Positions 277-56,942 of a DNA stretch of 64,000 nucleotides are shown here, in pieces (the stretch's first letter is position 1; every line of letters starts with the position of its first letter). Position numbers and translations under genes: made by a program. The notes beneath the pieces are model-generated. The model was not told the origin of the DNA. It searched no databases and worked only from the letters and a program-made list of their open reading frames with translations. Origin of the DNA: Candidatus Poribacteria bacterium (GTDB lineage: Bacteria > Poribacteria > WGA-4E > PCPOR2b); the NCBI GenBank assembly GCA_965207095.1, contig CBDBMC010000001.1, forward strand, positions 74,357 to 138,356, in the 5' to 3' direction.

Positions 277-3200
277 TTAGAATACCATCTTCTGCGTGGC
301 GGAATAGTCTCCTGCGGATAGGTGATAGAAGTAGACCCCGCTTGCTACCCCCTCACCGACGTTGTTTCTGCCATCCCAATAGATTGCTTTTGACCGACCC
401 TCGTAGACCGCTGCAATTCGATGCCCCACGTCGATTGTGCGGACGACCTGACCTGCTCCGTCATAGATGGTCAGGGTAACGAAAGCATCCTCTGCCAACC
501 GATACGGTATCCATGTCTCTGGATTGAACGGATTCGGATAATTTGCTAATAGTTCCGTCTCCGTCGGTATCTCGTAGGCAACCAATTCTGGTAACTGAAT
601 CAAACCCCATTTCACATCTTCAACTGTAACGGTATATCGCAACGGTTGCACACCGATGAGTGGATTGGGAGACCGAGCCGAGATTTCAAGGATATCGCCA
701 ACTGTAGCTGCGCGTCCTGTCTCTATATCAACGATGGCGGACCGATAACCGGCCGCATCGGGTGAGGTAACAGCAGCAACTGCACTGCGGGTTGAAAGGT
801 TCTTGACGGTTACTCGGAAGCTTTCTAACTTTAAGCCTGTTTCTTCGTCAACTATTGAACCGCTCAACCCCAAAATGGGTGTAACAGTATCCACTTCGAT
901 ACCCCGCATTACTACCGGTGACGCGGCAGCCATCGCGGAGGTATTATACCAGCCACTACCGGAGATAGCTACCGTTTCCTCTCGTAAAGTGGTCATGATA
1001 AAGGACTGTCCCCCGATGATTGCTATATCTGCAGAATCGCTTGTGGGATTAATCTGTTTGAACTCCCCGTTGTTATCTTGTGCCATAATCACAAGGACGT
1101 TATCTGCAATCCCTTCAAGAGTAAACAGGTTGCTCACATGGGTTATCCTTGAATCTCTCAACGGCACTCCCACAAGGTTGATACCGGGGTTTAGAGTGAT
1201 GATGCTGTTTCCATCTGTTCCGAGGCTGCTACCGCGCAGACGAAGCGGCACCGGGGTTATCAGATTGGTGATAATCCCCATATCATCAGTCAACTGTCTG
1301 TCAACGGGGGTGCTTCTGTCCGAGGGTTTGAGATAGCCAATCCATTGCTGAGTTTGGGAATTACGGGTGAAAAGGTAGATGACATTATCCTCGCTACCGA
1401 GTGCGTCGTAGAGGTCGCCGACCGATTCGATTGTCCCCGCTACTCCGTCAACCATCCTCACCTTCAACGGAACGTGAATCAAGCTGATACCTGATGGAAG
1501 AGCGAGATCAAATTCGAGTAGTTCAGCAACAGCATGAAAGGTCACAGTTTCAGCAATTCCTTCAACACTCACCCGAACTATGTTTGTGACAGGGTCGTTT
1601 CCAAGGGTCAGGGTACTTCGCGCTAAGCCGTTGGCATCACTGTCTACACTTGTCTCACTCAGCAAGCCTCCGCCTACGCTGGCAAGAAAGGTTACAGTAA
1701 CCCCTTCCATCGGGTCGTCGTACTGGTCGTGGACTTTTACGATGAAGGGTTGCATCAACGTCTCACCGGTCAACCCGATTTGATTATTGCCGGAAACGTA
1801 CTTCAGTGTCGTTGGTATCGGTAGTGGGGGAGTCGCCTCTGCACTAAAGAGTGCTGTTTGGGAAATACCTTCGGCACCGACTTTGACCACGTTCGTTCCT
1901 AGATTCGGTCCCAGCGTGAGGAGACTCTGTGCCCTACCATTGGCATCGGTTGTGGTGTTTGTCACACTGAGCGTACCACCGCCTGCAACAACAGCAAATG
2001 TGACCGAGCGCCCTGCGAGCGGAGAACCGTTTCCGTCCCTCGCTTCAACGACAAACATTTTTGCTAAAGTCTCATTAGGCATACCTTCCTGATTATCGCC
2101 TGAGATTTTCAATAGTTTTGATAGCGCAGATAGCGGCAATTGGTTGTATATGACTTCTGGGTCAAATAATATGGTTGAATCTTGACCCATTATAGCTAGC
2201 GTCATTCCATCAGGTGAAAATATGGGCCGTTTCCGAGCTGCAAAAATTTCAGAATCCAAGGTGGCAACAAATCTAGACGTTCTTGCATCCCAAACACTAA
2301 CCGAGCCACGACTTTCACGACTAGTACTTCTTAAAATCATCATTGAACTATCGGGTAAAAATGCCATAAAATCATTTCTATCAATAGTAGCCATGTCTCG
2401 CGTTATTAGATTCCATACCTTCACTCCTACATTTAATTTATGAAAAACAAGCATTGTTCCATCAGGCGAGAACGCTGCATAAGGACTATCACCGTCCAAG
2501 ATTTCAATGTTTTGTTTTGTGGCTATATCCCACAATCGAACAGTTTTGTCCCGTGATACAGAAGCAAGGGTATTCCCATCCGGCGAATATGTTATATGCC
2601 TAACTCCGTCTAGAGGTCCTCCCAATGTGGCGATAGGCTGCCCTGTTACAACATCCCATAATGTGATTATATGCCTCGTAGCCGATGCAAGCGTCTTTCC
2701 GTCAGGTGAAAACGCCCAATCTGCAACTGATGGATTTTCAATGATACCCGTCTGTGTTTGGGTTGGAACATCCCATAATCTGGTAAACTTTTCCCCACCG
2801 ACACGATACGCAAGTGTTCTCCCGTCCGGTGAAAACGATACAAGCCGAACATGGGAACTAGGCTTTACAGGAATAGTGGCAACATCTCTTCCTGTATTGA
2901 CCTCCCACACTTTTACGCCTCGAGTACCACCCGTTGCAAGCATGGTGCTATCAGGCGAGAACGATATAGGGGTCAATCCTATATGCCCTAAGTCAATAGT
3001 ATTGCCTGTGTTAATATCCCATACCTTTACAATATCATTCTGGGCATCAACAGTAAGAAAGGTCTTTCCATCTGGTGAAAAAACAATAGAGTTCATGTCA
3101 TAAACAGTAGGATCTTCATAAAGTGCAATAATGGACCGCGTTGTTACGTCCCACAAATGAATTGTATCAGGCGGAGAAGCCTCTATCCAAGCGAGTGTCT

Positions 3201-6003
3201 TTCCATCGGGCGAAAAAGCCACAGTCGAGATGCGCTCTGTCCTTCTAATCGTAAGGAGTTCTGTCCCTGTTATGGTATCCCACAATTTTACTGTGGCATC
3301 CCCTCCACCCGATGCAAGTATATTTTCAGTTGGTGAAAATGCGATAGAATTGACACGACCTGCATGCCCAAATGTATTTTTCAATTGACCTGTTAAGACA
3401 TCCCACACTCTTACTAATCCAGCCCACCCAGCACCAGCAATTAGAGCACCATCATGTGACACTGATATGGTATCAATAGTATCTTCAGAGTCCAGCCGTA
3501 CAAGCTCTTGCATTGTCACAATATCCCATAGTATTATTGTCCTTCCATCGGAGGACGCAATAGTTTTTCCATTGGGAGAAAATGCTACATGTCTACCAAT
3601 TCCTCCATCTGAACTAAAAGTAGTAATTTTTTCTTTTGTTACAATACTCCACACCTGATTCTGAATAAGCCCCTCCCGTGAGCTGCCAACAATGGCATTT
3701 CCATCGGGTGAAAATGCGATACTGTTCACAGGATATTGACTAGGAAGCAGCGCAACTTCCCTATAATTTACCGTATCATAAAGCCATATACCAGTACTGC
3801 TTGATACGGCGAGATATTGACCGTTGGACGAAAATGCTGCCGCCCTATCACTCCAGCCAGGACCTCCTTTGCCTATTCGGAATCTTGCTCTAGTTGGCAA
3901 ATTCCACGTTTGATACCTATTGCTTTCTCTTACTTCTTGTGTGCCTTCTAAAATTGTCACAGCTACCTTAGAACTATCCACTTGCTCTGTCGGTTCTTCC
4001 GAAAGGGTAAATTTTCTACGAGAAGATACATCCCCATTTATATCAACGGCTACAATAGAAATATCCTGTTGGGTATTCGTAGAAAGGCTAGTAAAACTGC
4101 TGCCTGGCACATCGCCATCATATTCAAATTTCACAACAACTTCCTTTTCGCCCATCAGGTGACGGCATGCTTTCACTTCCGGCAAACCAGCCGGAGCCAG
4201 TGAGCCTGCTGATGTAACAAAGAAGATAACTTGATGTATCCCTTGCGAATCAGCAACCTTAACTTGAATATCGACACTTTCTGATCCTGCTGGATACGTA
4301 GTTGATGAAGTCGATTTGATCGTTGGGGAACGCCCATTTTCAGTTGGAATATCAGGGTTGAAATAAGGACTTACCGACAAAAAATCAGCACTGCATTTGG
4401 ACAATCTATCTTGATCAGGCCCGTCACTAGGCGCTCGATTGTATCCCGCCCCATACGACATGATATATCCGCCGCTACGGAAATCGTGTTGTAGTCCAAA
4501 CGCGTGACCTATCTCATGAGCAGAGAGTTTATCATACCCCGGTTCGTTAGCCTCTATTCTGTCCTGAAAATGATGCGCAGGGATTAAGAGATTTCCACCA
4601 TTCTTTCCAGAACTCCCTGCATTAGCATTCACGCGGCTATTTCCAACTCCCGTACCAATACCATCAATGCTACTATCGACGACAATAAAGTAGATGTTTT
4701 GCCAAACATCAAATTCTTGTCGGACCTCAGTACGCACAGTGTTACCTGTATCGTCAACATAGTAAATCTCGGACTGTTGCCCATCCACACGATGTACCAC
4801 CGGCTTGCCTTGTGCATCACTTTCAATCTTGAAAGTCATATCATATCCATGCACCTTCATACTCTCGTTATAGAAGACTTGAACTCTGAGAATCTCATCT
4901 TTCATCCGCTGAACCACATTTTCACGATATGGACGGTCATTTGGTAAGAAGTAGATCAGCCGTACCGTGCGCGGTTCGCCGACGTTCCGCCCGCCAGCTA
5001 GAACGTCAACAGTGACTCCTCGATTCTGGAGGGTTGGGATATGGGTGCCGGAGGATGGAGAACTGAGAGGGTTTCCTCGCAGATAGACCATGTCTCCATT
5101 TCCCAATCCCGTATTTGCCACTAATGCTGATATATCCGATATCGAGTTGTCCACAACATACAGCGATGTCAGATTAGTCAAGCCCGAAACCGCTGATATA
5201 TCTGATACCCAGTTATACGGAAAATGCAGGTATGCCAGATTAGTCAAGCCCGAAACCGCCGATATGTCCGATACCAAGTTATACCCAAGATACAGCGATG
5301 TCAGCTTAATCAAGCCCGAAACCGCCGATATGTCCGATACCGAGTTGTTCCTGAGACTCAGGATTGTCAGATTAGTCAAGCCCGAAACCGCCGATATGTC
5401 CGATACCAAGTTATCCTGAAGATTCAGCGATGTCAACTGAGTTAAGTCTCCCAACGCTGATATATCTGATACCGAATTGTTTGAAAAGCCCAATGTTTTC
5501 AGGTGAGTCAAGTCCGAAACCGCCGATATATCTGATATGAAGTTATTCCCAAGATGCAGCAATGTCAGGTTGGTTAACCCCGACAATGATGTGATGTCCG
5601 AAATTGAGTTATTCCCAAGATGCAACGATCTCAGATTAGTCAAGCCCGAAACCGCCGATATATCTGATATGAAGTTCCACCCAAGATACAACGTTCTCAG
5701 GCTGGTTAACCCTGACAATGATGTGATGTCCGAAATCGAGTTGCGCCCAAGATACAGCGATATCAGGTTGATTGCATGTTCCAGCCCGGTCAAATCACTG
5801 ATGTTGGACTCTCTCGCTGTAAGACTTCTCAATGCTGCCATATCTGACGAGGTGATGGGATCACCTGACGCCTTGCCCAATTCCGCCATAATTGCAGCGC
5901 GGAGGTTGGGATCAGGGATGTCTACCGTTTGTGCGGTTGACGTTGACGGAATTGAGAGGAAAATCAACAGGATAAGGGTAAAACGATGAGCCGGTATTGT
6001 CAT
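277..6003 (-). CDS. Giant secreted mosaic protein: signal peptide, internalin-like LRRs, HEIGHAFGLQHD zinc-metalloprotease (metzincin-like) domain, WD40 beta-propeller repeats, Big (bacterial Ig-like) domains, shared DUF module, T9SS C-terminal sorting domain
   Basis: Single 1927-codon ORF; likely start at the internal ATG at 6003 (MTIPAHRFTLILLIFLSIPSTSTA signal) with GGGGAG SD. Motifs LxxLxLxxNxISDIS xN, HEIGHAFGLQHD (DNA at 4505-4519), repeated FSPDG..WD units, NYPNPFNPETWIPY...GVYFY tail (TIGR04183-like). Confidence 0.8.
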   Translation of the reverse strand: MTIPAHRFTLILLIFLSIPSTSTAQTVDIPDPNLRAAIMAELGKASGDPITSSDMAALRSLTARESNISDLTGLEHAINLISLYLGRNSISDITSLSGLTSLRTLYLGWNFISDISAVSGLTNLRSLHLGNNSISDITSLSGLTNLTLLHLGNNFISDISAVSDLTHLKTLGFSNNSVSDISALGDLTQLTSLNLQDNLVSDISAVSGLTNLTILSLRNNSVSDISAVSGLIKLTSLYLGYNLVSDISAVSGLTNLAYLHFPYNWVSDISAVSGLTNLTSLYVVDNSISDISALVANTGLGNGDMVYLRGNPLSSPSSGTHIPTLQNRGVTVDVLAGGRNVGEPRTVRLIYFLPNDRPYRENVVQRMKDEILRVQVFYNESMKVHGYDMTFKIESDAQGKPVVHRVDGQQSEIYYVDDTGNTVRTEVRQEFDVWQNIYFIVVDSSIDGIGTGVGNSRVNANAGSSGKNGGNLLIPAHHFQDRIEANEPGYDKLSAHEIGHAFGLQHDFRSGGYIMSYGAGYNRAPSDGPDQDRLSKCSADFLSVSPYFNPDIPTENGRSPTIKSTSSTTYPAGSESVDIQVKVADSQGIHQVIFFVTSAGSLAPAGLPEVKACRHLMGEKEVVVKFEYDGDVPGSSFTSLSTNTQQDISIVAVDINGDVSSRRKFTLSEEPTEQVDSSKVAVTILEGTQEVRESNRYQTWNLPTRARFRIGKGGPGWSDRAAAFSSNGQYLAVSSSTGIWLYDTVNYREVALLPSQYPVNSIAFSPDGNAIVGSSREGLIQNQVWSIVTKEKITTFSSDGGIGRHVAFSPNGKTIASSDGRTIILWDIVTMQELVRLDSEDTIDTISVSHDGALIAGAGWAGLVRVWDVLTGQLKNTFGHAGRVNSIAFSPTENILASGGGDATVKLWDTITGTELLTIRRTERISTVAFSPDGKTLAWIEASPPDTIHLWDVTTRSIIALYEDPTVYDMNSIVFSPDGKTFLTVDAQNDIVKVWDINTGNTIDLGHIGLTPISFSPDSTMLATGGTRGVKVWEVNTGRDVATIPVKPSSHVRLVSFSPDGRTLAYRVGGEKFTRLWDVPTQTQTGIIENPSVADWAFSPDGKTLASATRHIITLWDVVTGQPIATLGGPLDGVRHITYSPDGNTLASVSRDKTVRLWDIATKQNIEILDGDSPYAAFSPDGTMLVFHKLNVGVKVWNLITRDMATIDRNDFMAFLPDSSMMILRSTSRESRGSVSVWDARTSRFVATLDSEIFAARKRPIFSPDGMTLAIMGQDSTILFDPEVIYNQLPLSALSKLLKISGDNQEGMPNETLAKMFVVEARDGNGSPLAGRSVTFAVVAGGGTLSVTNTTTDANGRAQSLLTLGPNLGTNVVKVGAEGISQTALFSAEATPPLPIPTTLKYVSGNNQIGLTGETLMQPFIVKVHDQYDDPMEGVTVTFLASVGGGLLSETSVDSDANGLARSTLTLGNDPVTNIVRVSVEGIAETVTFHAVAELLEFDLALPSGISLIHVPLKVRMVDGVAGTIESVGDLYDALGSEDNVIYLFTRNSQTQQWIGYLKPSDRSTPVDRQLTDDMGIITNLITPVPLRLRGSSLGTDGNSIITLNPGINLVGVPLRDSRITHVSNLFTLEGIADNVLVIMAQDNNGEFKQINPTSDSADIAIIGGQSFIMTTLREETVAISGSGWYNTSAMAAASPVVMRGIEVDTVTPILGLSGSIVDEETGLKLESFRVTVKNLSTRSAVAAVTSPDAAGYRSAIVDIETGRAATVGDILEISARSPNPLIGVQPLRYTVTVEDVKWGLIQLPELVAYEIPTETELLANYPNPFNPETWIPYRLAEDAFVTLTIYDGAGQVVRTIDVGHRIAAVYEGRSKAIYWDGRNNVGEGVASGVYFYHLSAGDYSATQKMVF

Positions 6004-6294
6004 AGATTTTCTCCCCTGAAGCTGGAAACGTATATGGGACACTGGTATCTTGATGGTCATACCACCTACCCTATCTGGCTTGTGCCTCGCTGCCTCACCT
6101 GCTGACTTTCATTATCCCTACACGCCTAAGCTTTAGTAAGGACGACATGTGTATAAAGCACCAACCCAATGAACCAATAAACTAACAAAGTCCAGTAGGG
6201 TAATATGTAGTAGCTTCCCTTAATATAGGCTACTATAGGCAGTGTATCAGACTATAAACGGCGTGTCAAGTATGCCCTAGATGTTTTCTATCCT

Positions 6295-8247: not shown

Positions 8248-8497
8248 TTAGAGCCTGTTTTAAAAGTGAAACGGTCATCTTTAGGAAGTTCACATGTCGC
8301 CCCGCTGGGGCTTAGGTTGTTTGTTTGTCCCGTATTCTATAAACATGTCGCCCCGCTGGGGCTAAGAATCTGTTTTAAGAGTACGTGAAACGGTCATCTT
8401 TTGCCATTCTAGAGACACAATCAACCGATTTTGAGAGTATTTACCCGTAAACTGACAACTTTCAGAGATTATTTGGATTTTTCAAACAGGTTCTTAA
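8248..8497. repeat. Composite REP-bearing element, family A; REP copies at 8294-8312 and 8344-8363
   Basis: Same architecture as the copy at 1-230. Confidence 0.85.
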
Positions 8498-8613: not shown

Positions 8614-9639
8614 TCAAATTGCAGCAAGCGCCGCCGAGAGTGCCTTGATGTAGCCGACGGAATATGCCAAAGCACCTCCCGCGTCAGAGCCATCTCCCTC
8701 TATCGGGAAGATATGGTCTGGATTCAAACACCCATCAAAACCCACCTCGTTGAGCGCATGGACAATCTTGAACATATTCATGTCGCCGTCGTCCAAGAGC
8801 GTCTCCTCGTAACCCCCCGCGGTTGCCAGACTGCCTCGCACGTTCCGGAAATGAACCATGAAGATCCGCCCCTTGCGTCCGTAGTTCTGAATCTCATCTA
8901 ACACCAACGGGAGTCCACCCGCTTCTGCCCGTGTCCCACAGCAGTACAGATACCCCACATTCGGACTGGGAAACGCATCAATTACCCGATGAAATCCCAA
9001 TGTGCCGAACGGTGTGTCTGGCAGGGGGATATCCGACGGATGGATCGCAAGTTTGATATCGTATGCCTCAGCGATGGGCACCAGCCGCTGGTAGACCCGA
9101 CAGAAATGTCGCCACCAATCGTCCAGTTCCTCACGGCTGGGCGGCTCGTTAGCCGGGAACAGGGACCAGTGGTGAAATCTGTACGCCTTCAGCTCCGCCT
9201 CGCTGCGGGGTTTGGGTTGGTCGCCGGTCAACCAACGGCTGCCCCCACTGCCGAGAAAGCCAGCGCGATGTACGGACCGATAGAAGGTTATCAGGTGATT
9301 GAAGGTGTCCCCTTCAAAGCGTTGCCGGGCAATGGGCATGCCTGCCTCCCCGAATACCCGCATCGCCTGCTCAGTGTTTTCCAACTCTACCTCGCTACCT
9401 TCCTCATCCCCCATAAACCTCTCGGTGATATCGGGCAAGGTCACACGATTGATTCGCAGTCCCCATGAATAGATCTTCTTTTTGATCTTGAGCAGTTCGT
9501 CCAGATCCGGGTAGCCCTGTTCCTTGACGCCGGGGAAAAAGTCGCCGGAACCGAAGTCAACGCAGTCAACCCCCAACTGTGTGATCCGTTTCAGGTAGCT
9601 GTCCGAAAGATTGCCGCAACTTACAGATATGCCAAACAT
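8614..9639 (-). CDS. Mannonate dehydratase (UxuA)-family / xylose-isomerase-like TIM-barrel protein
   Basis: 341 aa; HPSDIPLPDTPFG..., CCGTRAEAG and IFMVHFRNVRG align with UxuA HPDDPP / C.GS / IYFTHLR motifs. The UxuA WRWYG N-terminal motif is absent. Confidence 0.5.
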   Translation of the reverse strand: MFGISVSCGNLSDSYLKRITQLGVDCVDFGSGDFFPGVKEQGYPDLDELLKIKKKIYSWGLRINRVTLPDITERFMGDEEGSEVELENTEQAMRVFGEAGMPIARQRFEGDTFNHLITFYRSVHRAGFLGSGGSRWLTGDQPKPRSEAELKAYRFHHWSLFPANEPPSREELDDWWRHFCRVYQRLVPIAEAYDIKLAIHPSDIPLPDTPFGTLGFHRVIDAFPSPNVGYLYCCGTRAEAGGLPLVLDEIQNYGRKGRIFMVHFRNVRGSLATAGGYEETLLDDGDMNMFKIVHALNEVGFDGCLNPDHIFPIEGDGSDAGGALAYSVGYIKALSAALAAI

Positions 9640-9676
9640 GGTGTTCTCCTTAATGCCACCATTGGTAGAATATTGG

Positions 9677-9997
9677 TCACAATGCTATGACGCGCTCGGT
9701 ATCGTCCCACTGTGGCGATATGTGGATGCTCACCTCACAGTTGAGGCGTTCCAGAAACCGCATCAACCGTTCGACGCTATAGTAAGAAAGCTTGGCGGCT
9801 TTAAGGCGGGCAATTTCAGGTTGTTTCACGCCAAGTAACGCTGCCTCCGCCTGCGTTAGCCGGCGTTCGTCCAGGATACGGAAAATTTCTGCGCCTAACT
9901 GCGCTTTCAACAATTCTTCTTCAGCAACCTCATCAGGAAAGCCTAAATCCTTAAAAATGTTGCTGCTGCCCTGTTCAACCTTGATTTTATTACTCAT
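9677..9997 (-). CDS. HigA-like XRE-family HTH antitoxin
   Basis: 106 aa; NIFKDLGFPDE...LTQAEAALLGVKQPEIARL...LSYYSVERLMRFLERLN pattern of COG5606/HigA2-type antitoxins; start overlaps the stop of an upstream toxin-like remnant (ATGA overlap). Confidence 0.75.
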   Translation of the reverse strand: MSNKIKVEQGSSNIFKDLGFPDEVAEEELLKAQLGAEIFRILDERRLTQAEAALLGVKQPEIARLKAAKLSYYSVERLMRFLERLNCEVSIHISPQWDDTERVIAL

Positions 9998-10097
9998 TCT
10001 CTTCCATCTCCTTTGCTCGCCTTAATCTCCGTTTAATCAAATCAATTTCCTCCCTGATAGGAAGAAACCAGAAACCGGGTCCGTCCCCGCAATCAAT
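9990..10097 (-). pseudogene. 3-prime remnant (about 35 codons) of a RelE/HigB-like toxin gene overlapping the antitoxin start
   Basis: Reading frame ...WFLPIREEIDLIKRRLRRAKEMEENE* ends on the ATGA of the antitoxin; an upstream in-frame TAA leaves no start; a second copy of the same tail is at 11746-11880. Confidence 0.45.
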
Positions 10098-10282
10098 TTA
10101 TAAATTGAATGCACGACATACAGAGTCTAACTATTTCTAGTACGCCGACTGTAATTTTTCGATAGCATCCCCTCACTATAATATATGGCTGTTTACACCG
10201 CAGCTTCAGTAGAGAATCATCTTGAGGAGGTATGAACACGAAGGTAAAAAATTTAGCAAGAAATTCTGAAAATAACCAGAGC

Positions 10283-10311
10283 TTGACAAAACTTCTATCC
10301 CACGTTACAAT
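10283..10311 (+). promoter_or_regulatory. Putative sigma70-type promoter TTGACA-17-TACAAT for the tandem-repeat protein gene
   Basis: TTGACA 10283-10288, TACAAT 10306-10311; AAAGGGG SD before the ATG at 10390. Confidence 0.45.
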
Positions 10312-10389
10312 AAGGGATTATGCTGAAAACATGGTGTTGTCACAGCCACCGCGATTCACATTTCAAAATATAAGAAAGGGGTAATAATA

Positions 10390-11079
10390 ATGCACGAATC
10401 AACCAATCATATCAACGCCGTCCTTGCAGCATCTGCACGTTTAGCCGCAGACTCTGAAAAGCTAACAGAACCCAGCAATCATACCAATGCCGTCCTTGCA
10501 ATATCTGCACGTTTAACCGCAGACTTTGAAAAACTAACAGAACCCAGCAATCATCTCAAGTCCGCTCTTGCAGCATCTGCACGTTTAACCGCAGACTTTG
10601 AAAAACTAACAGAACCCAGCAATCATCTCAAGTCCGCTCTTGCAATATCTGCAGCATGTCTCACCGCAGACCTCGAAAAACTAGGAGAATCCCGTAATCA
10701 TCTCAAGTCCGCTCTTGCAGTATCTGCACGTTTCGCCGCAGACCTTCAGAGACTAAGCGAACCCAGCAATCATCTCAAGTCCGCCCTTGCAGTATCTGCA
10801 GCATGTCTCACCGCAGACCTCGAAAAACTAGGAGAATCCCGTAATCATTTCAAATCTGCCCTTGCAGAATCTGCACGTTTCGCCGCAGACCTTCAGAAAC
10901 TAAGAAACCCCAACAATCATTTCAAATGTGCCCTTGCAGAATCTGCACGTGCCGCTGCGACCTCTGAAAAAGCGCAAGAGCATCGAAACAATTACGTCGA
11001 GACCAACTACAATCGCGACTTAGCTTATCAGGATAAAGAAGAACCTGTGGACATGCCATCGAAGATTATAACAAGGTAG
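10390..11079 (+). CDS. Hypothetical protein built of about 9 tandem 20-aa repeats (EPSNHLKSALAVSARFAADLQKLS)
   Basis: 60-nt period at DNA level over 10405-10960; AT-rich relative to flanks; good promoter and SD. Confidence 0.55.
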   Translation: MHESTNHINAVLAASARLAADSEKLTEPSNHTNAVLAISARLTADFEKLTEPSNHLKSALAASARLTADFEKLTEPSNHLKSALAISAACLTADLEKLGESRNHLKSALAVSARFAADLQRLSEPSNHLKSALAVSAACLTADLEKLGESRNHFKSALAESARFAADLQKLRNPNNHFKCALAESARAAATSEKAQEHRNNYVETNYNRDLAYQDKEEPVDMPSKIITR

Positions 11080-11231
11080 TAATATCTGCTTTGGAATTAG
11101 GTAAGAATCTTATTGGAAACGAGTTAGCTTTTTCTGCAGGAAATCAGGAAACTTCAAGCAACACTACGTATATTGAGCAAATAAACATCACATTTAATAT
11201 TAAACACCTAACCCAGGGAGAAAGCTTTGAA

Positions 11232-11600
11232 ATGAAATCTGAAATATCTAATAGCCAAGTAGGCGTGTTGAACACAGGAGAGATGCAAGCTAAATCAATA
11301 ACTGGAAGCGTCTCCCCTTCGGTTGATCCCAACCAACATCAGATAGCGGAAGCACTCACAAGTTTAACGGAAGCAGTAAAAGCCAGCCAAAACATCTCGT
11401 CACAACAACAAACGGAAATTATAGAGCAATTAGAATTACTTAATGAACAAGCTAAATTAGCACCCTCTGAACGAAAAGTAGGTCTTATCAAGCCTATCTT
11501 ATCCACACTTTCCACTGCTCTCAGTGCAGGAGGCGGAGCAGCTGAGATATGGTCTCAGTGCGGTGATGCAATAAAGATTTTCTTTGGTATTCACGAGTAA
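11232..11600 (+). CDS. Hypothetical S/Q/T-rich protein (start uncertain; may be the frameshifted continuation of the upstream gene)
   Basis: ORF open from 11037; first ATG at 11232 preceded by GGGAG; different frame from 10390-11079. Confidence 0.3.
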   Translation: MKSEISNSQVGVLNTGEMQAKSITGSVSPSVDPNQHQIAEALTSLTEAVKASQNISSQQQTEIIEQLELLNEQAKLAPSERKVGLIKPILSTLSTALSAGGGAAEIWSQCGDAIKIFFGIHE

Positions 11601-11674
11601 AATTCAATCAATTGACGGATCTGCTTGAATCCGCGTCATCTCTTAATCCGTGACAATCCGCGATTCAGACGGTA

Positions 11675-11880
11675 TCTTCATCAAGGCAGTTATATGAAAA
11701 CGTACCTAATGCCGCCATTGAGAGAATATTGCTCATAAGCCGCTCTCCATCTCCTTCGCTCGCCTTAATCTCCGCTTAACCAAGTCAATCTCCTTCTTGG
11801 GTGTACTTATCCCACGTTGAAATTTCTGTCGCATTTCAGCTGCGCCTTCCGATAAAGCCCCGGCGGGGTGACAGGTGTAT
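11675..11880 (-). pseudogene. Second degraded copy of the toxin tail plus first codons of the HigA-like antitoxin
   Basis: ...KKEIDLVKRRLRRAKEMESGL* overlapping ATGA with a 23-codon MSNILSMAAL.. fragment; same DNA as the 9990-10060 junction. Confidence 0.4.
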
Positions 11881-11992
11881 TATACCTCGCCGGTGTCCAC
11901 CCAATCGAAGACGTATTTTGGATTATACAGAAACATCAAAACGCTTCAGAAACTCAAGATTATTGCTACTCTGAAGGTCTGACAAGTGAATG

Positions 11993-12970
11993 ATGTAACT
12001 CTTGATTGTTAATATAACGCAAGTTGCTAGATGTTTATTTAATGATGAGTGTAATCATAGTGGCAATGAGAAACAAAACCACTTTAATCTCAAATCCAGC
12101 GGCAGTCACTGCATGAATAGAACGATGGTAGCCGTTGGGTGCATTAGACCGTTTGTCACCTCCACCCGCTTGCGATACTGATGGTGTAGGTAAACTTGCC
12201 ATCGGTTTATATTGACGCTTACTGTTTTTCTTACGCAACGGTTTGAGCATAATACCGGCTTGGGACAAAGCAGTCCTCAGAATCCCATAATTACAATAGG
12301 CTCTATCTGCATGAACAACCGCTCCCTGAGGCAAATCAAACGGATAACACCGCAACCCCATCACATCACCAAAACTGCCCGGTGTTAAGAAAAACTCAAC
12401 CGGCACACCACGCTCAGTGACCATCAGATGCAGTTTGAGTCCATAGAAGTATCTACGTTTACTGGTTATCTTACCGCGCCACTCTTTACCTTGATACAGT
12501 TTTGCACTAGAGATACGAATTGGGTCACATGCTGGAACGGGATACGAGTCAATAGCATAGATTTGATGTGAGTTTTGTGCTTTACAGTTAGCGGCTATAG
12601 ATTCAAAAAGTATCTGAAACATCGGTGCAATTTGATGGAGTCTGCGGTTGAATCGTGCTTTACTGAGCATATTGGGAATATATCCCTGTTCTTTGAGTAG
12701 GTGTCGTGCCAGCTGTTGATTGCCACCGAACAGTTCTGCTGCCACTAAGGCGGTGGTCATTACTTCTGCGGCAGACATTTTGGTTCGTGGGTCATCTTGA
12801 TATCCGTGTTGAATTAACAGATCGTCACAAAGTGTATAAAATGCTACGATGACTAAGTCCATGGGATTCTCCTGTTTATGAGGTTTGTTGTCGCTAACAA
12901 ATACTCTAACGGAAATTCCATGGATATTCAAATAGCAACTTGCGTTAATATAATGGACGACAGCATCCAA
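11993..12970. mobile_element. IS982-family insertion sequence with about 21-bp imperfect terminal inverted repeats (TTAATATAACGCAAGTTGCTA)
   Basis: Left TIR 12009-12029, right TIR 12933-12953 in inverted orientation; single DDE transposase ORF inside; inserted into the RAYT gene. Confidence 0.75.
12035..12862 (-). CDS. IS982-family DDE transposase
   Basis: 275 aa from ATG 12862; N-terminus MDLVIVAFYTLCDDLL... is the typical IS982 start (ΦΦCxVDDF motif). Confidence 0.75.
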   Translation of the reverse strand: MDLVIVAFYTLCDDLLIQHGYQDDPRTKMSAAEVMTTALVAAELFGGNQQLARHLLKEQGYIPNMLSKARFNRRLHQIAPMFQILFESIAANCKAQNSHQIYAIDSYPVPACDPIRISSAKLYQGKEWRGKITSKRRYFYGLKLHLMVTERGVPVEFFLTPGSFGDVMGLRCYPFDLPQGAVVHADRAYCNYGILRTALSQAGIMLKPLRKKNSKRQYKPMASLPTPSVSQAGGGDKRSNAPNGYHRSIHAVTAAGFEIKVVLFLIATMITLIIK

Positions 12971-13297
12971 CTGAGAATGTACATACGAGAACGCTGCAGT
13001 AAGCCTCCCTGCCATTCAAATCTACCGACAACCGCATCCCTTTCTGTTAATCCATTTTGACGAATTTGTTTTGATATCTCTCACCAAGTCAGAAATCGCA
13101 ATGTCGGGTGTGATACCTACAAGGATATGAAGGTGATCTGGCATTGAATTAATCCGAATTACTGTCTGCTTTTTATGGGTGATAATGCGGGTAACATATT
13201 GGTGAAGTGCCTCTTTGTGCTGTTTGGGAATGAGGGATTGCCTGCCTTTGACAGCAAAAATAATGTGTATGTAAAGTTGGGTATAGGTATCAGCCAT
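12958..13297 (-). pseudogene. REP-associated tyrosine transposase (RAYT / IS200-like Y1 TnpA), frameshifted and truncated by the IS982 insertion
   Basis: MADTYTQLYIHIIFAVKGRQ...MPDHLHILVGI...SSKWINRK then a +1 shift into ...GRFEWQGG (RAYT KFEWQEGYGAFS motif) which runs into the IS982 TIR; REP doublet immediately 5-prime. Confidence 0.7.
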
Positions 13298-13315: not shown

Positions 13316-13385
13316 CTGTCGCCCCGCTGGGGCTTGGGAGATTTTGTTATCCCGTGTGCTCAATAAACATATCGCCCCGCTGGGG
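13316..13385. repeat. REP doublet (GTCGCCCCGCTGGGGC x2, 34-nt spacer ending AATAAAC) abutting the RAYT 5-prime end
   Basis: Copies at about 13316-13333 and 13367-13385. Confidence 0.85.
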
Positions 13386-13604
13386 CTATGTTGGTTCATT
13401 AGTCCATCAGTTTATTGGTGCAATTAATGAACCTTTGAGGCTACAGCATATTAATTTGAATCCCAAGCATCGGGATGGCGTATGCCTATCACTAACACCT
13501 TGGTTTCTATAGATTCGTGCTCATTCGTGCAGATTCACGGACGCCTTACGCCCTCTTCTTACCTGAACTTCCGTGACGTTGTTTCGTGCAGGATTGGTTC
13601 ACCT

Positions 13605-13672
13605 GTCGCCCCGCTGGGGCTTTCATTACTAGGGGATTTCACTTTTCTATAAACATGCCGCCCCGCTGGGGC
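13605..13672. repeat. REP doublet
   Basis: Copies at about 13605-13621 and 13655-13672, spacer ends CTATAAAC. Confidence 0.85.
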
Positions 13673-13847
13673 TAAATACACTAAAAATTCAGGGGGCAGC
13701 AGCCATCGTAGGGGCTTGGTTTCCAAGCCCATCGGGTTGGGTTACCCAACCCCTACGCCTCTCGCCCTCTCGTTTTTCCGTCTTCTCCGCTTTCCTCCGT
13801 GTTCTCCGTATAATCTTCTCAATCCGCGATTCAGACAAAAAGTCCAG

Positions 13848-18131: not shown

Positions 18132-18385
18132 TTAGAGCCTGTTTTAAAAGTGAAACGGTCATCTTTAGGAAGTTGTTCACATGTCGCCCCTCTGGGGCTT
18201 AGGTTGTTTATTTGTCCTGTATTCTATAAACATGTCGCCCCGCTGGGGCTAAGCATCTGTTTTAAGAGTAGATGAAACGGTCATCTTTTGCCATTCTAGG
18301 GGCACAATCAACCGATTTTGAGAGTATTTACCCGTAAAATGACAACTTTCAGAGATTATCCCGATTTATCGGGACAGGTTCTTAG
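18132..18385. repeat. Composite REP-bearing element, family A; REP copies 18181-18200 (variant GCCCCTCTGGGGC) and 18232-18250
   Basis: As other family A copies. Confidence 0.85.
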
Positions 18386-22321: not shown

Positions 22322-22391
22322 ATGTCGCCCCGCTGGGGCTTGGCTGTATGTGTGATATCCATATTCTATAAACATGTCGCCCCGCTGGGGC
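22322..22391. repeat. REP doublet
   Basis: GTCGCCCCGCTGGGGC at 22322-22340 and 22373-22391. Confidence 0.85.
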
Positions 22392-22554
22392 TAAATGAAC
22401 CGCTGAACCAATAACTTTTACGTTTCACGCATCATGTGTCACGTTATCGACAGCTGCAAACTAGCACCATTGGTTGGTAGGCATATTCCGTATGCCGTAA
22501 CCCGTGTACAAATTACGTCACGACGCAACGCACCCATTAAATTGCACCAATGGG

Positions 22555-34512: not shown

Positions 34513-35535
34513 CTAGCGCGTAGGAGGCTCATCATTTGGTTCGGAATGGACAGGAGGTTTGCGTCGTTCCCGTTCAAACTGTCGAGCCGCTTCAGGATCC
34601 ATCTCCCTGAAACGACGGAGCCCCTCTTTTGTGCCGTACTGGTCAAAGAGCTGTTTCGCCTGATCTCGTTGTTCCGGCGACAATCCCTCCCAGCCGCTCG
34701 CTTCAACACCTTTAGCAGCTGTCGGTGCAGGCGGTTGGGCGGTGGGCGGTTGGTATACATGCCTATCTTCGTGGTGAACAGGTTCAGTCGTGACTGAGGT
34801 CTTAGGTTCAGGCATTACAGGAGTCTCCTCAGAACGAGCAGGCGGAAAGTCTATATCCCCATCAATGCTTTCTGAAGAAATGCTATCGGGCGCAGGGGTA
34901 TCGGACCAGAGATGCTCAGGTACATTCCCAAAATGATACTCCTTATAACCCGGCGGAGGCCTTACATTCTCCAAATCCTCCTCATACACGATCTCAAAAT
35001 CGTCCTCGTCGAGCCCCTGTGCTTTCTGAGTCTTTCGTATTGCCAACATTAGTCCATGCCCGCCCTCTGGAAATAGGTAGTGTGCCACTTCTAAGCCAGC
35101 AATCTCTTCATCAATTGTCATACGTTCCCGTTTGTATATTTTTCGCATGTATTCGGAGAGCGTATGAACCTGTGGAATGTCTCCAAACATTTGAATCCAT
35201 TGGTCGTGCACAAAATCTGCTTTCTCGTCTGGAGTGAGGGTTTCTGAAGACGTTTTTTCTGCGGAGGCGGTTTGCTCCTGTGGAAGTGTCTTATGCAGGC
35301 GGTCATCAGGAATGAATCTCTCCCCATTCACTTCAACAACCTGCCCTTCAACAAAGTCGTTAGAATCTTCCATTTCATTTACTGATGAGGAGGAATTGTT
35401 AATAGGTTGGTTAACAACCGCAGGTGATTGAGGTAGATTTTCTATAAAGTTCTTTTCTTCCTTGTTTAGGTAGAAAATCCAGCCAGCCACGAAAACGACT
35501 ATCACTGAGAAAAATAGAATAAACTTTCGCATCAA
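34513..35535 (-). CDS. Hypothetical membrane-anchored protein with conserved C-terminal QLFDQYGT.EGLRRFREMDPEAARQFERERR motif
   Basis: 340 aa; N-terminal TM helix; paralog (frameshifted) at 36773-37923. Confidence 0.6.
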   Translation of the reverse strand: MMRKFILFFSVIVVFVAGWIFYLNKEEKNFIENLPQSPAVVNQPINNSSSSVNEMEDSNDFVEGQVVEVNGERFIPDDRLHKTLPQEQTASAEKTSSETLTPDEKADFVHDQWIQMFGDIPQVHTLSEYMRKIYKRERMTIDEEIAGLEVAHYLFPEGGHGLMLAIRKTQKAQGLDEDDFEIVYEEDLENVRPPPGYKEYHFGNVPEHLWSDTPAPDSISSESIDGDIDFPPARSEETPVMPEPKTSVTTEPVHHEDRHVYQPPTAQPPAPTAAKGVEASGWEGLSPEQRDQAKQLFDQYGTKEGLRRFREMDPEAARQFERERRKPPVHSEPNDEPPTR

Positions 35536-51232: not shown

Positions 51233-51485
51233 TAAGAGCCTGTTTTAAAAGTAAAACGGTCATCCTTAGAAAGGTGTTCACATGTCGCCCCGCTGGGGCT
51301 TGGGTTGTTTGTTTATCCTGATTCTATAAACATGTCGCCCCGCTGGGGCTAAGAGTCTGTTTTAAGAGTAGGTGAAACGGTCATCTTTTGCCATTCTAGG
51401 AGCACAATCAGCCGATTTTGAGAGTATTTGCCCGTAAAATGAGAACTTTCAGAGATTATCCCGATTCATCGGGACAGGCTCTAAT
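51233..51485. repeat. Composite REP-bearing element, family A; REP copies 51292-51310 and 51342-51360
   Basis: As other family A copies. Confidence 0.85.
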
Positions 51486-55737: not shown

Positions 55738-56103
55738 TCATTCCACTTCCGAAACTTTTACCTTCTCAACTTCATTCGAGATTAGCCACTCCAAAAAGTC
55801 TTCCTGCTCCTCGGTGATCTCAATTTCGGCTTGGTTTTGATCGTCTAACGGGGAGGTCACGTAGAACACTCCGTCGTCATACAGTTCAGATGTAAGCTCA
55901 AGCGGGAAGAAAAACGCATTTGGATCGCCGCTATGTTCCCATTGACGGGCACTGGCGCCCTCGGTGAAGTAGTGGAGCTGCCCGCGCAGCGTTTGTGAGA
56001 TTTCGTACGGTTCAAGCGTCGATTTGTCTATAGCAGATGCAAGATATTTAGCCATATTATCTTTTCCTATCAATTTGTATGCAATTACAAAGGTGGTTTT
56101 CAA
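55738..56103 (-). CDS. Small acidic hypothetical protein translationally coupled to the GIY-YIG gene
   Basis: 121 aa; ATGA overlap with upstream gene; C-terminal EIEITEEQEDFLEWL acidic tail. Confidence 0.45.
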   Translation of the reverse strand: MKTTFVIAYKLIGKDNMAKYLASAIDKSTLEPYEISQTLRGQLHYFTEGASARQWEHSGDPNAFFFPLELTSELYDDGVFYVTSPLDDQNQAEIEITEEQEDFLEWLISNEVEKVKVSEVE

Positions 56104-56942
56104 TTCAGATTCAACCCAAACGCTCTCGAACCGAGTTTATTCTTCCATACGTTTTCATGTGCTATGACTTCCCTACGAGATAAACTTGTAGAAACTGTCT
56201 GCAGTATCGTAAAAGAAAAGTTAGCAGCATACTCATTACCACGCTCGCTCAATAGTTCTTGAAGTTTTGCATTTCCTCCGTGACCATCTTGGGTATATCT
56301 TGTCCATCTGCCTATGATACCATTTTTCCCATACGCTGAACCAACATATTGATTACCTGTTGTCGTATCAACTATCAGATATACCCCTGCAACCGCTGAC
56401 AACATAGTGTGCCACACTCGGTTAGAATCCGGGCCATCGACTATTCGACTCAGTTCATCAAACTTTAGAATAAAGTCAAGATAGCCCGGAAAGGAGCCAA
56501 CATATCCGCCCGGTAGAACCTCAACCACTGCTTTTTTCGTGAGCCATTGACCCCAAGACTGTGTTGCCTTACCCCACTCGATAACGACTCGGTTCTCTAA
56601 GTCCTCAAAGCCAGCAACCTTCTCCAGTTTGTAGAAATAACGAGTGCCTTCGACAATTTGAGGATAAGGGTAGTTTTCTGGCAGATGTCTACGCTTCAAC
56701 CGTTCTTCATCTTTGACTTTATACACACCAATGAACTTTGCCTTAGTTCTCTCCACTCCAACAAAAGAAACAATATAATCGCAGCAGCTAAAAACCTGTT
56801 CACTTTGGCATTGCTGATAAAACTCCAATTGTGCTTTGGTCATCTCACTTATGAGATAATCGCCATGGTCTGTGTGCCTTACTAGCTTAGTTGATTTCTT
56901 CGTGTCCAATCCTCTGATTTTTAGAAGTTCTACGATATTCAT
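56100..56942 (-). CDS. GIY-YIG nuclease-domain protein with about 170-aa N-terminal domain of unknown family
   Basis: 280 aa from ATG 56942 (GGGGGAG SD); GVYLIVDTTTGNQYVGSAYGKNGIIGRWTRYTQDGHGGN...FSFTILQ matches GIY-(10-11)-YIG, catalytic Arg and Asn; AT-rich. Confidence 0.7.
   Translation of the reverse strand: MNIVELLKIRGLDTKKSTKLVRHTDHGDYLISEMTKAQLEFYQQCQSEQVFSCCDYIVSFVGVERTKAKFIGVYKVKDEERLKRRHLPENYPYPQIVEGTRYFYKLEKVAGFEDLENRVVIEWGKATQSWGQWLTKKAVVEVLPGGYVGSFPGYLDFILKFDELSRIVDGPDSNRVWHTMLSAVAGVYLIVDTTTGNQYVGSAYGKNGIIGRWTRYTQDGHGGNAKLQELLSERGNEYAANFSFTILQTVSTSLSRREVIAHENVWKNKLGSRAFGLNLN

Follow-up and report, generated by a model that had tools for sequence, protein, structure and literature searches.

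Two co-directional genes on the minus strand of a Candidatus Poribacteria contig (CBDBMC010000001.1, assembly GCA_965207095.1) raise the question of whether a GIY-YIG nuclease and the small acidic protein encoded beside it form a defence module, or are neighbours by accident. The window analysed is a stretch of 64,000 nucleotides (nt) of this contig (positions 74,357 to 138,356), and all coordinates below refer to it. Both open reading frames (ORFs), which lie between 55738 and 56969, are real. An earlier note had read them as an AT-rich two-gene islet bracketed by repeats, in which the nuclease is translationally coupled to a DNA-mimic-like partner. We favour a different explanation, to which we give a probability of roughly 0.6: the large gene is an orthologue of uzuA, it has no partner in the small gene, and its product joins a reader of modified DNA to a GIY-YIG cutter. 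Within the window, uzuA represents an already known defence system of a single gene, seen here in a new host phylum; there is no nuclease/DNA-mimic pair.

Identity and integrity of uzuA

The large gene and its parts are the following.

56100-56942, minus strand: uzuA, a complete Uzume defence gene of 280 codons (stop codon at 56100-56102; assigned with PADLOC and by alignment of homologues).
56469-56942, minus strand: UzuA N-terminal domain (about residues 1-158), predicted to be a PUA-like reader resembling the CMoRE sensor.
56394-56468, minus strand: linker of two helices (about residues 159-183; helices 161-169 and 175-182 by DSSP on the models, with lower predicted local distance difference test (pLDDT) values in the model of the N-terminal domain alone).
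56103-56393, minus strand: UzuA C-terminal GIY-YIG nuclease domain (about residues 184-280).
56943-56983, minus strand: about 40 nt of upstream sequence that travels with uzuA, as judged from homology between UzuA-bearing loci; it holds the ribosome-binding site (GGGGGAGAG) and is the left edge of the shared cassette.

The gene starts at the ATG at 56942, since the aligned homologues (alignment A2) all begin MNI.ELL, which gives a protein of 280 amino acids. Comparison with the PADLOC models returned a match to the UzuA profile PDLC03973 over the full length of the protein (E 2.2e-90, residues 1-280 against positions 3-278 of 278), and a second UzuA model, PDLC03974, also matches (E 1.1e-50). 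Judged by sequence, the protein almost certainly belongs to the UzuA family, and we regard the gene as a functional UzuA orthologue; no other protein than UzuA makes up the anti-phage system Uzume. The suggestion of the earlier note that the nuclease serves in anti-phage defence is borne out, as far as homology can tell, by this full-length match. Uzume (UzuA) was reportedly described by Millman et al. in 2022 as a single-gene anti-phage system.

The GIY-YIG core that had been noticed in this protein is also confirmed. The catalytic Tyr, Tyr, Arg, Glu and Asn of the fold are intact when the protein is aligned to I-TevI (Y188/Y6, Y199/Y17, R212/R27, E263/E75 and N278/N90, the UzuA residue being given first), and I-TevI was the sole match for the C-terminal domain in a profile search of PDB sequences. 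The Pfam PF01541 score of the protein is 18.0 bits, the gathering cut-off being 22.6, and 26 of 27 family members match this model, with a best E of 5e-6; the TIGR01453 score is 35.3 against a cut-off of 56.05, the match being limited to the catalytic part. The ratio of non-synonymous to synonymous substitution rates (dN/dS) of uzuA is 0.20-0.38 in comparisons with four same-locus orthologues, and the frame has no internal stop; the gene is therefore intact and under purifying selection, and a pseudogene was rejected on the same grounds.

The UzuA family is large, with at least 1879 homologue clusters at 90% identity (E<=1e-3). Homologues occur on 420 plasmids, including plasmids of Klebsiella, Enterobacter and Bacillus; the Bacillus copies are 39-46% identical to the Poribacteria protein, and those inspected are standalone genes. 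These plasmid homologues agree with a published account in which most Uzume systems of the B. cereus group are on plasmids, and a 2024 survey describes Uzume as a single-gene system with GIY-YIG homology. A survey of possible partner genes in 96 UzuA loci of other lineages (80 metagenomic loci and 16 on viral contigs) found no recurrent neighbour family in more than four loci: a ParB-methylase-like neighbour is present in only four of the 96, and the ORFs downstream of UzuA differ widely in length and charge. These loci, the Bacillus plasmids and the small gene next to uzuA in the window (see below) all fit a single-gene system with no conserved partner.

UzuA relatives are found on 16 viral contigs (L137-L152, IMG/VR) and, at 29% identity, in two Klebsiella phage or phage-plasmid records (MK422451.1 and CP058330.1), from which it follows that some copies are phage- or prophage-borne. 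Some alleles are mosaic (columns ~240-324 of alignment A2): P0020 equals P0010 over the N-terminal two thirds, and has a divergent C-terminal nuclease segment in common with P0016. This mosaicism points to recombination within the uzuA-family gene.

The N-terminal domain and its relatives

The earlier note had recognised nothing in front of the catalytic core, and indeed these ~175 residues carry no functional annotation in Pfam, NCBIfam or PHROGs, where the N-terminal domain finds only PHROG 26160 ('unknown function'), a group that corresponds to the UzuA family. AlphaFold models reached a pLDDT of 88.5 for the full-length protein and 84.8 for the N-terminal domain alone. In an independent Foldseek comparison for this domain, the four CMoRE entries ranked first, followed by a YTH domain bound to double-stranded DNA with N6-methyladenine (6mA) and by ASCH, with modest values for the best match (E 2.8e-3, TM score 0.42); the sensor domain of CMoRE is the best match by two methods. 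The domain is thus predicted to be PUA-like and closest to the domain of CMoRE that binds 5-hydroxymethylcytosine (5hmC). A role as a modified-DNA reader, raised as a possibility in the earlier note, is the interpretation of the predicted fold that has most support. That note had also considered that the domain might be a DNA-binding domain of a homing endonuclease in an intron or intein; no homing-endonuclease DNA-binding fold appeared among the structural matches, and neither the domain nor the context fits.

A phmmer search with the N-terminal domain against 1.84 billion representatives gave 619 clusters (counted at 50% identity), mostly proteins of ~280 amino acids in which the domain is followed by GIY-YIG. 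In some relatives (P0235, P0251 and P0312) the domain (E 1e-17 to 1e-23) is joined to an HNH domain in place of GIY-YIG. The HNH domain of P0235 matches VcaM4I (E 5e-22) and that of P0312 matches E. coli McrA, or EcoKMcrA (E 7e-22). VcaM4I and McrA are modification-dependent enzymes. Eleven residues of the N-terminal domain, K19, R22, H23, Y42, Q43, Q46, F60, Y104, W123, G124 and W130, are invariant across the GIY-YIG and HNH architectures, and they would plausibly fit a base pocket and DNA contacts.

The same type of N-terminal domain is also fused to C-terminal regions with no Pfam match in P0271 (803 amino acids), P0275 (322) and P0297 (381), and it stands behind a DUF3489 segment in P0289 (306). 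These proteins may carry further effector or regulatory modules on the same reader.

A proposed mechanism

We propose that the N-terminal domain of UzuA would recognise a modified base in incoming phage DNA, the base probably being flipped into an aromatic pocket for which Y42, Y104, W123 and W130 are candidates, and that the I-TevI-like C-terminal GIY-YIG domain would then cleave the modified DNA. Host DNA would lack the modification, so that neither a methyltransferase nor an immunity protein would be needed. The locus has the two hallmarks expected of a type IV enzyme, a nuclease fused to a domain of the modified-base reader type (here a predicted PUA-like one) and no cognate methyltransferase: the neighbours of the nuclease gene are PhyH, the small protein, TauD and MR_MLE. 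The statement of the earlier note that no methyltransferase is adjacent therefore stands, as does its view that a classical restriction-modification system is unlikely. There are precedents for such an enzyme. CMoRE, which has been characterised by experiment, is a type IV enzyme dependent on 5hmC or glucosylated 5hmC (ghmC), and its C-terminal domain binds 5hm-dCTP in the way that SRA domains do (PMC12923530), and fusions of EVE to GIY-YIG were predicted earlier to be type IV enzymes (PMC7641849).

Judging from its predicted fold, Uzume may act by cutting phage DNA that carries chemical modifications, and we hold a type IV, modification-dependent mechanism to be about as likely as all other mechanisms taken together, or slightly more so. 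The UzuA reader may be akin in structure to the 5hmC sensor of CMoRE, although it is N-terminal and unrelated in sequence. The chances are about even that Uzume as a whole is a large and widespread type IV family, in which an unclassified PUA-like reader is swapped between GIY-YIG, VcaM4I-type HNH and McrA-type HNH nucleases. To connect UzuA with a CMoRE-like sensor and with type IV restriction, as is done here, may be new.

Several points weigh against this mechanism. The structure prediction on which it depends was built from 27 sequences, and no sequence-level link was found between the N-terminal domain and any reader family. PUA-like domains (YTH, ASCH, PUA) often bind RNA, so that RNA, or another ligand altogether, is conceivable here. 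Finally, reviews of 2025-26 list the mechanism of Uzume as unknown or uncharacterised.

The alternative that survives best keeps UzuA as a defence nuclease and lets its PUA-like domain sense a different signal of infection (RNA that is modified or structured, a phage protein or a nucleotide, for instance), with a GIY-YIG domain that degrades nucleic acid indiscriminately (abortive infection) or acts on a DNA structure. The habits of PUA-like domains just mentioned leave room for it, but the closest match found by two methods is a domain that binds 5hm-dCTP in a type IV enzyme, the N-terminal domain has been exchanged onto HNH modules that are specific to VcaM4I and McrA, both type IV enzymes, and nothing in the architecture would serve as a regulator or a partner. 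We consider it unlikely, at about one chance in four.

If UzuA is indeed a modification-dependent enzyme, the Poribacteria copy implies that phages of sponge symbionts have hypermodified DNA, the reader is a new family of modified-base readers that could yield epigenetic tools like AbaSI, MspJI and CMoRE, and the reason why Uzume needs no partner is explained.

History of the locus

The composition of the region sets uzuA apart from the genes around it. Its GC content is 0.423 and its GC content at third codon positions (GC3) is 0.388, against a GC3 of 0.547 for the small gene and 0.59-0.62 for the flanking genes, which means that only uzuA is compositionally foreign. The two-gene AT-rich islet described in the earlier note is thereby reduced to one gene, as the GC3 of the small gene is close to that of the flanks. 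On the Poribacteria chromosome, UzuA is a cargo of one gene, placed in the intergenic region that separates the gene of a PhyH-family dioxygenase from the resident small gene; among at least 19 Poribacteria loci that are otherwise syntenic here, some have UzuA at this site and others do not. The horizontal acquisition that had been suspected is supported both by the foreign GC3 and by this presence and absence among close relatives.

Homology between the UzuA-bearing loci L001, L013 and L024 begins at intergenic position 685-689, which corresponds to about 56983 in the window. By this comparison the shared cassette consists of the ~40 nt upstream and the uzuA gene, and it has no terminal repeats and no adjacent integrase or transposase. 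One locus records a loss: L016 (intergenic 1-542) equals L024 (intergenic 1-1502) minus a clean deletion of 919 nt, with 98.5% identity up to the breakpoint. UzuA is gone from L016, where the ~40 upstream nt and 29 nt from the 5' end of the gene are left as a scar, and the small gene is kept. The synonymous divergence (dS) of uzuA from the alleles of L001, L002 and L013 is 0.22-0.38, and that of TauD and PhyH is two to three times higher (0.60-0.75); in these three loci the dN/dS of uzuA is above that of the flanking genes. The allele of L024 matches the flanks in age (dS 0.63), with a dN of 0.24. Such low dS values compared with the flanks suggest allelic exchange between Poribacteria lineages by homologous recombination, and we infer that UzuA has long resided at this site, with exchange of alleles by homologous recombination and repeated loss by deletion. 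In L013 the dS of the small gene is low as well (0.39).

Two candidates were set aside. A 14-nt direct repeat (56057-56070 and 57406-57419) that could have marked the boundaries of an insertion overlaps the end of a unit resembling a miniature inverted-repeat transposable element (MITE), and is probably a chance match. A hotspot for multiple cargoes was rejected as well, because the ORFs at the empty sites are all short and unsupported.

The occupation of one site in several species, together with the low dS to three of the four other alleles, which speaks for lateral spread into the same locus, might also be expected of a free-standing, Seg-like homing GIY-YIG endonuclease, a selfish gene that would cut the empty site between PhyH and the small gene and be copied in by repair. 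However, descent, homologous recombination and deletion account for the occurrence at the same site, the domain order is opposite to that of GIY-YIG homing enzymes, and a PUA-like N-terminal domain takes the place of a NUMOD, IENR1 or helix-turn-helix (HTH) module. In addition, the TIGR01453 score lies below the cut-off, the family is found in many unrelated plasmid and chromosome contexts, and an anti-phage phenotype is what defines it (PADLOC UzuA). A homing endonuclease is improbable here.

The small acidic gene

The features downstream of uzuA are the following.

55738-56055, minus strand: resident gene for an acidic protein of 105 amino acids, a neighbour that is not part of the defence system, as judged from homologue starts, synteny, GC3 and dN/dS.
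56056-56099, minus strand: spacer of 44 nt from the uzuA stop codon to the ATG of the small gene, which holds the small gene's own leader (ataggaaaagataat).

The translational coupling claimed in the earlier note, with its 4-nt overlap (TTGA) and a protein of 121 amino acids, depends entirely on a TTG start at 56103. Each of the 44 clusters of homologues has a length of 100-108 amino acids and begins with MAKY or MTKY, where an ATG lies at 56055 in the window. The length and the start of all these clusters make this ATG the true start, which gives a protein of 105 amino acids and replaces the overlap by a 44-nt gap. The leader motif 'taggaNaaNataa-ATG' is common to filled sites and several empty ones.

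The distribution of the two genes decides whether they belong together. We scanned one genome per species for the small protein, with adjacency of UzuA assessed by tblastn. The protein is present in 47 species, mostly Candidatus Poribacteria with a few Isosphaeraceae/Planctomycetota and Latescibacterota, and UzuA adjoins it in two of them (L013 and L024) as well as in two metagenome loci (L001 and L002). The arrangement of the window, with PhyH transcribed divergently from the small gene and TauD downstream of the latter, recurs in at least 14 Poribacteria species, which have an intergenic gap of only 215-954 nt without UzuA. More distant homologues lie beside AnmK in one clade, or between HslVU-like genes and an epimerase. 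Conversely, no homologue of the small protein was found in the 96 UzuA loci of other lineages by tblastn (E<=10) or with a hidden Markov model of alignment A1. The small ORF is therefore not conserved with UzuA when the neighbourhood of the pair is compared, an outcome that the earlier note had named beforehand as speaking against its reading, and the toxin-immunity or defence pair made of a nuclease and an acidic DNA mimic falls with 45 of 47 species lacking an adjacent UzuA and none of 96 UzuA loci having the small gene. Neither co-occurrence across lineages nor translational coupling, as would be expected of a two-gene pair, is seen.

The small gene has a dN/dS of 0.06-0.11, like the flanking genes, and its product has no family in Pfam, PDB sequences, PADLOC, NCBIfam or PHROGs. 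We are confident that it is not a partner of UzuA: it is an unrelated core gene, just upstream of which UzuA landed, and the two probably share a transcript simply through where they happen to lie. The family (100-108 amino acids, acidic) is restricted to Poribacteria, Isosphaeraceae/Planctomycetota and Latescibacterota, and its invariant motifs include YFT.G and GVFY..SPLDD.N.AE.E.T.EQED.L.WL.

A two-gene module, in which the acidic protein would be a DNA-mimic immunity or antitoxin partner coupled to the nuclease, can draw on two adjacent, co-directional genes 44 nt apart (no terminator-like site was found in the spacer), on the acidity of the small protein and on the four related loci that keep both genes (L001, L002, L013 and L024), but it is hardly credible given the true start, which abolishes the overlap, the species of identical synteny and the unrelated contexts in which the small gene does without UzuA, the varied size and charge of the ORFs that stand in its place at all 96 other UzuA loci, its host-like GC3 and dN/dS, its distance of 417 nt from UzuA in L024 and its survival in L016.

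REP-like repeats and other features of the window

The region on the PhyH side of uzuA contains two hairpin doublets that resemble repetitive extragenic palindromic (REP) elements.

57008-57081, plus strand: REP-like hairpin doublet with GCCCC-NNN-GGGGC cores, dispersed genome-wide and outside the cassette.
57305-57378, plus strand: second REP-like hairpin doublet, in a tandem unit of ~120 nt (57257-57291 and 57375-57413).

The hairpin motif TCGCCCCGCTGGGGCTT has 20 copies in the window, where 0.01 would be expected, with 18 of the 20 on the plus strand; most form doublets with a spacing of ~51 nt. Examples are found at 29-96, 8297-8364, 13319-13388, 13606-13674, 18184-18251, 22325-22393, 51285-51351 and 57063-57376. 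The repeats near uzuA (57008-57081, ~57101-57120 and 57305-57378) all lie between uzuA and PhyH, and none was found between the small gene and TauD. The bracketing by REPs or MITEs described in the earlier note does not hold up, as the repeats are one-sided and dispersed through the window. Of 17 other Poribacteria loci of the same synteny that were checked, 16 lack them in the orthologous intergenic region, as does the more distant L028; L002 has a single core. The hairpins are a lineage-specific, REP/MITE-like family that neither brackets nor mobilises uzuA, and that appears to have expanded recently in the lineage of the window.

Elsewhere in the window, a protein of 1927 amino acids (277-6060, minus strand) has leucine-rich repeats, a WD40 beta-propeller and Big_1 repeats, in a stretch of low GC (~0.43-0.45). 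Eukaryote-like repeat proteins are often reported in sponge symbionts, and this protein is of that kind. The stretch 9450-13000, with a GC of 0.41-0.45, encodes an antitoxin-like HTH_37 protein (9677-9997), two ORFs of unassigned role and a DDE transposase (12035-13015); its proteins have no PADLOC match, and it is probably another mobile islet. The lowest GC of the window (0.39) is at 34513-35535 (minus strand), an ORF of 340 amino acids with no Pfam or PADLOC match.

Comparison with known systems

UzuA of the window differs from the homing endonucleases I-TevI and the Seg proteins in its reversed domain order and its lack of homing-type DNA-binding modules, and its gene lies in no intron, intein or phage genome. 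With no NUMOD, IENR1 or HTH region, a chromosomal intergenic site and a TIGR01453 score below the cut-off, it was not assigned to this group.

CMoRE, or PD-T4-3 (PMC12923530; PDB 9u75), is a GIY-YIG type IV enzyme specific for 5hmC and ghmC. It has its GIY-YIG domain at the N-terminus and its sensor at the C-terminus, whereas the order is reversed in UzuA, and the two show no similarity in sequence, with 13% identity in a structural alignment. The UzuA motif is GVYLIVD and does not have the third Tyr of GIYxY-YIG, residues 184-280 contain no run of four acidic residues able to form an autoinhibitory loop, and the nuclease domain is I-TevI-like and not UvrC-like. PADLOC gave no PD-T4-3 match. 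UzuA is thus not a member of the CMoRE/PD-T4-3 group, from which domain order, motif, acidic loop and profile all separate it.

The protein agrees with Uzume in its full-length profile match, its length of ~280 amino acids, its unannotated N-terminal domain followed by GIY-YIG, and its standalone gene with no conserved partner. There is no structural difference; the copy described here differs in being an orthologue from Poribacteria, which are sponge symbionts, and in lying in a metabolic neighbourhood and not in a defence island.

In its overall plan, UzuA resembles VcaM4I/TspA15I, EcoKMcrA and TagI (PMC6765204) and the predicted EVE-GIY-YIG proteins (PMC7641849), which have an N-terminal PUA-like reader (a predicted one in UzuA), a small C-terminal nuclease and no methyltransferase. 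With VcaM4I and McrA the resemblance extends to the relatives of the UzuA N-terminal domain, which carry HNH domains that match those of the two enzymes at E ~1e-22.
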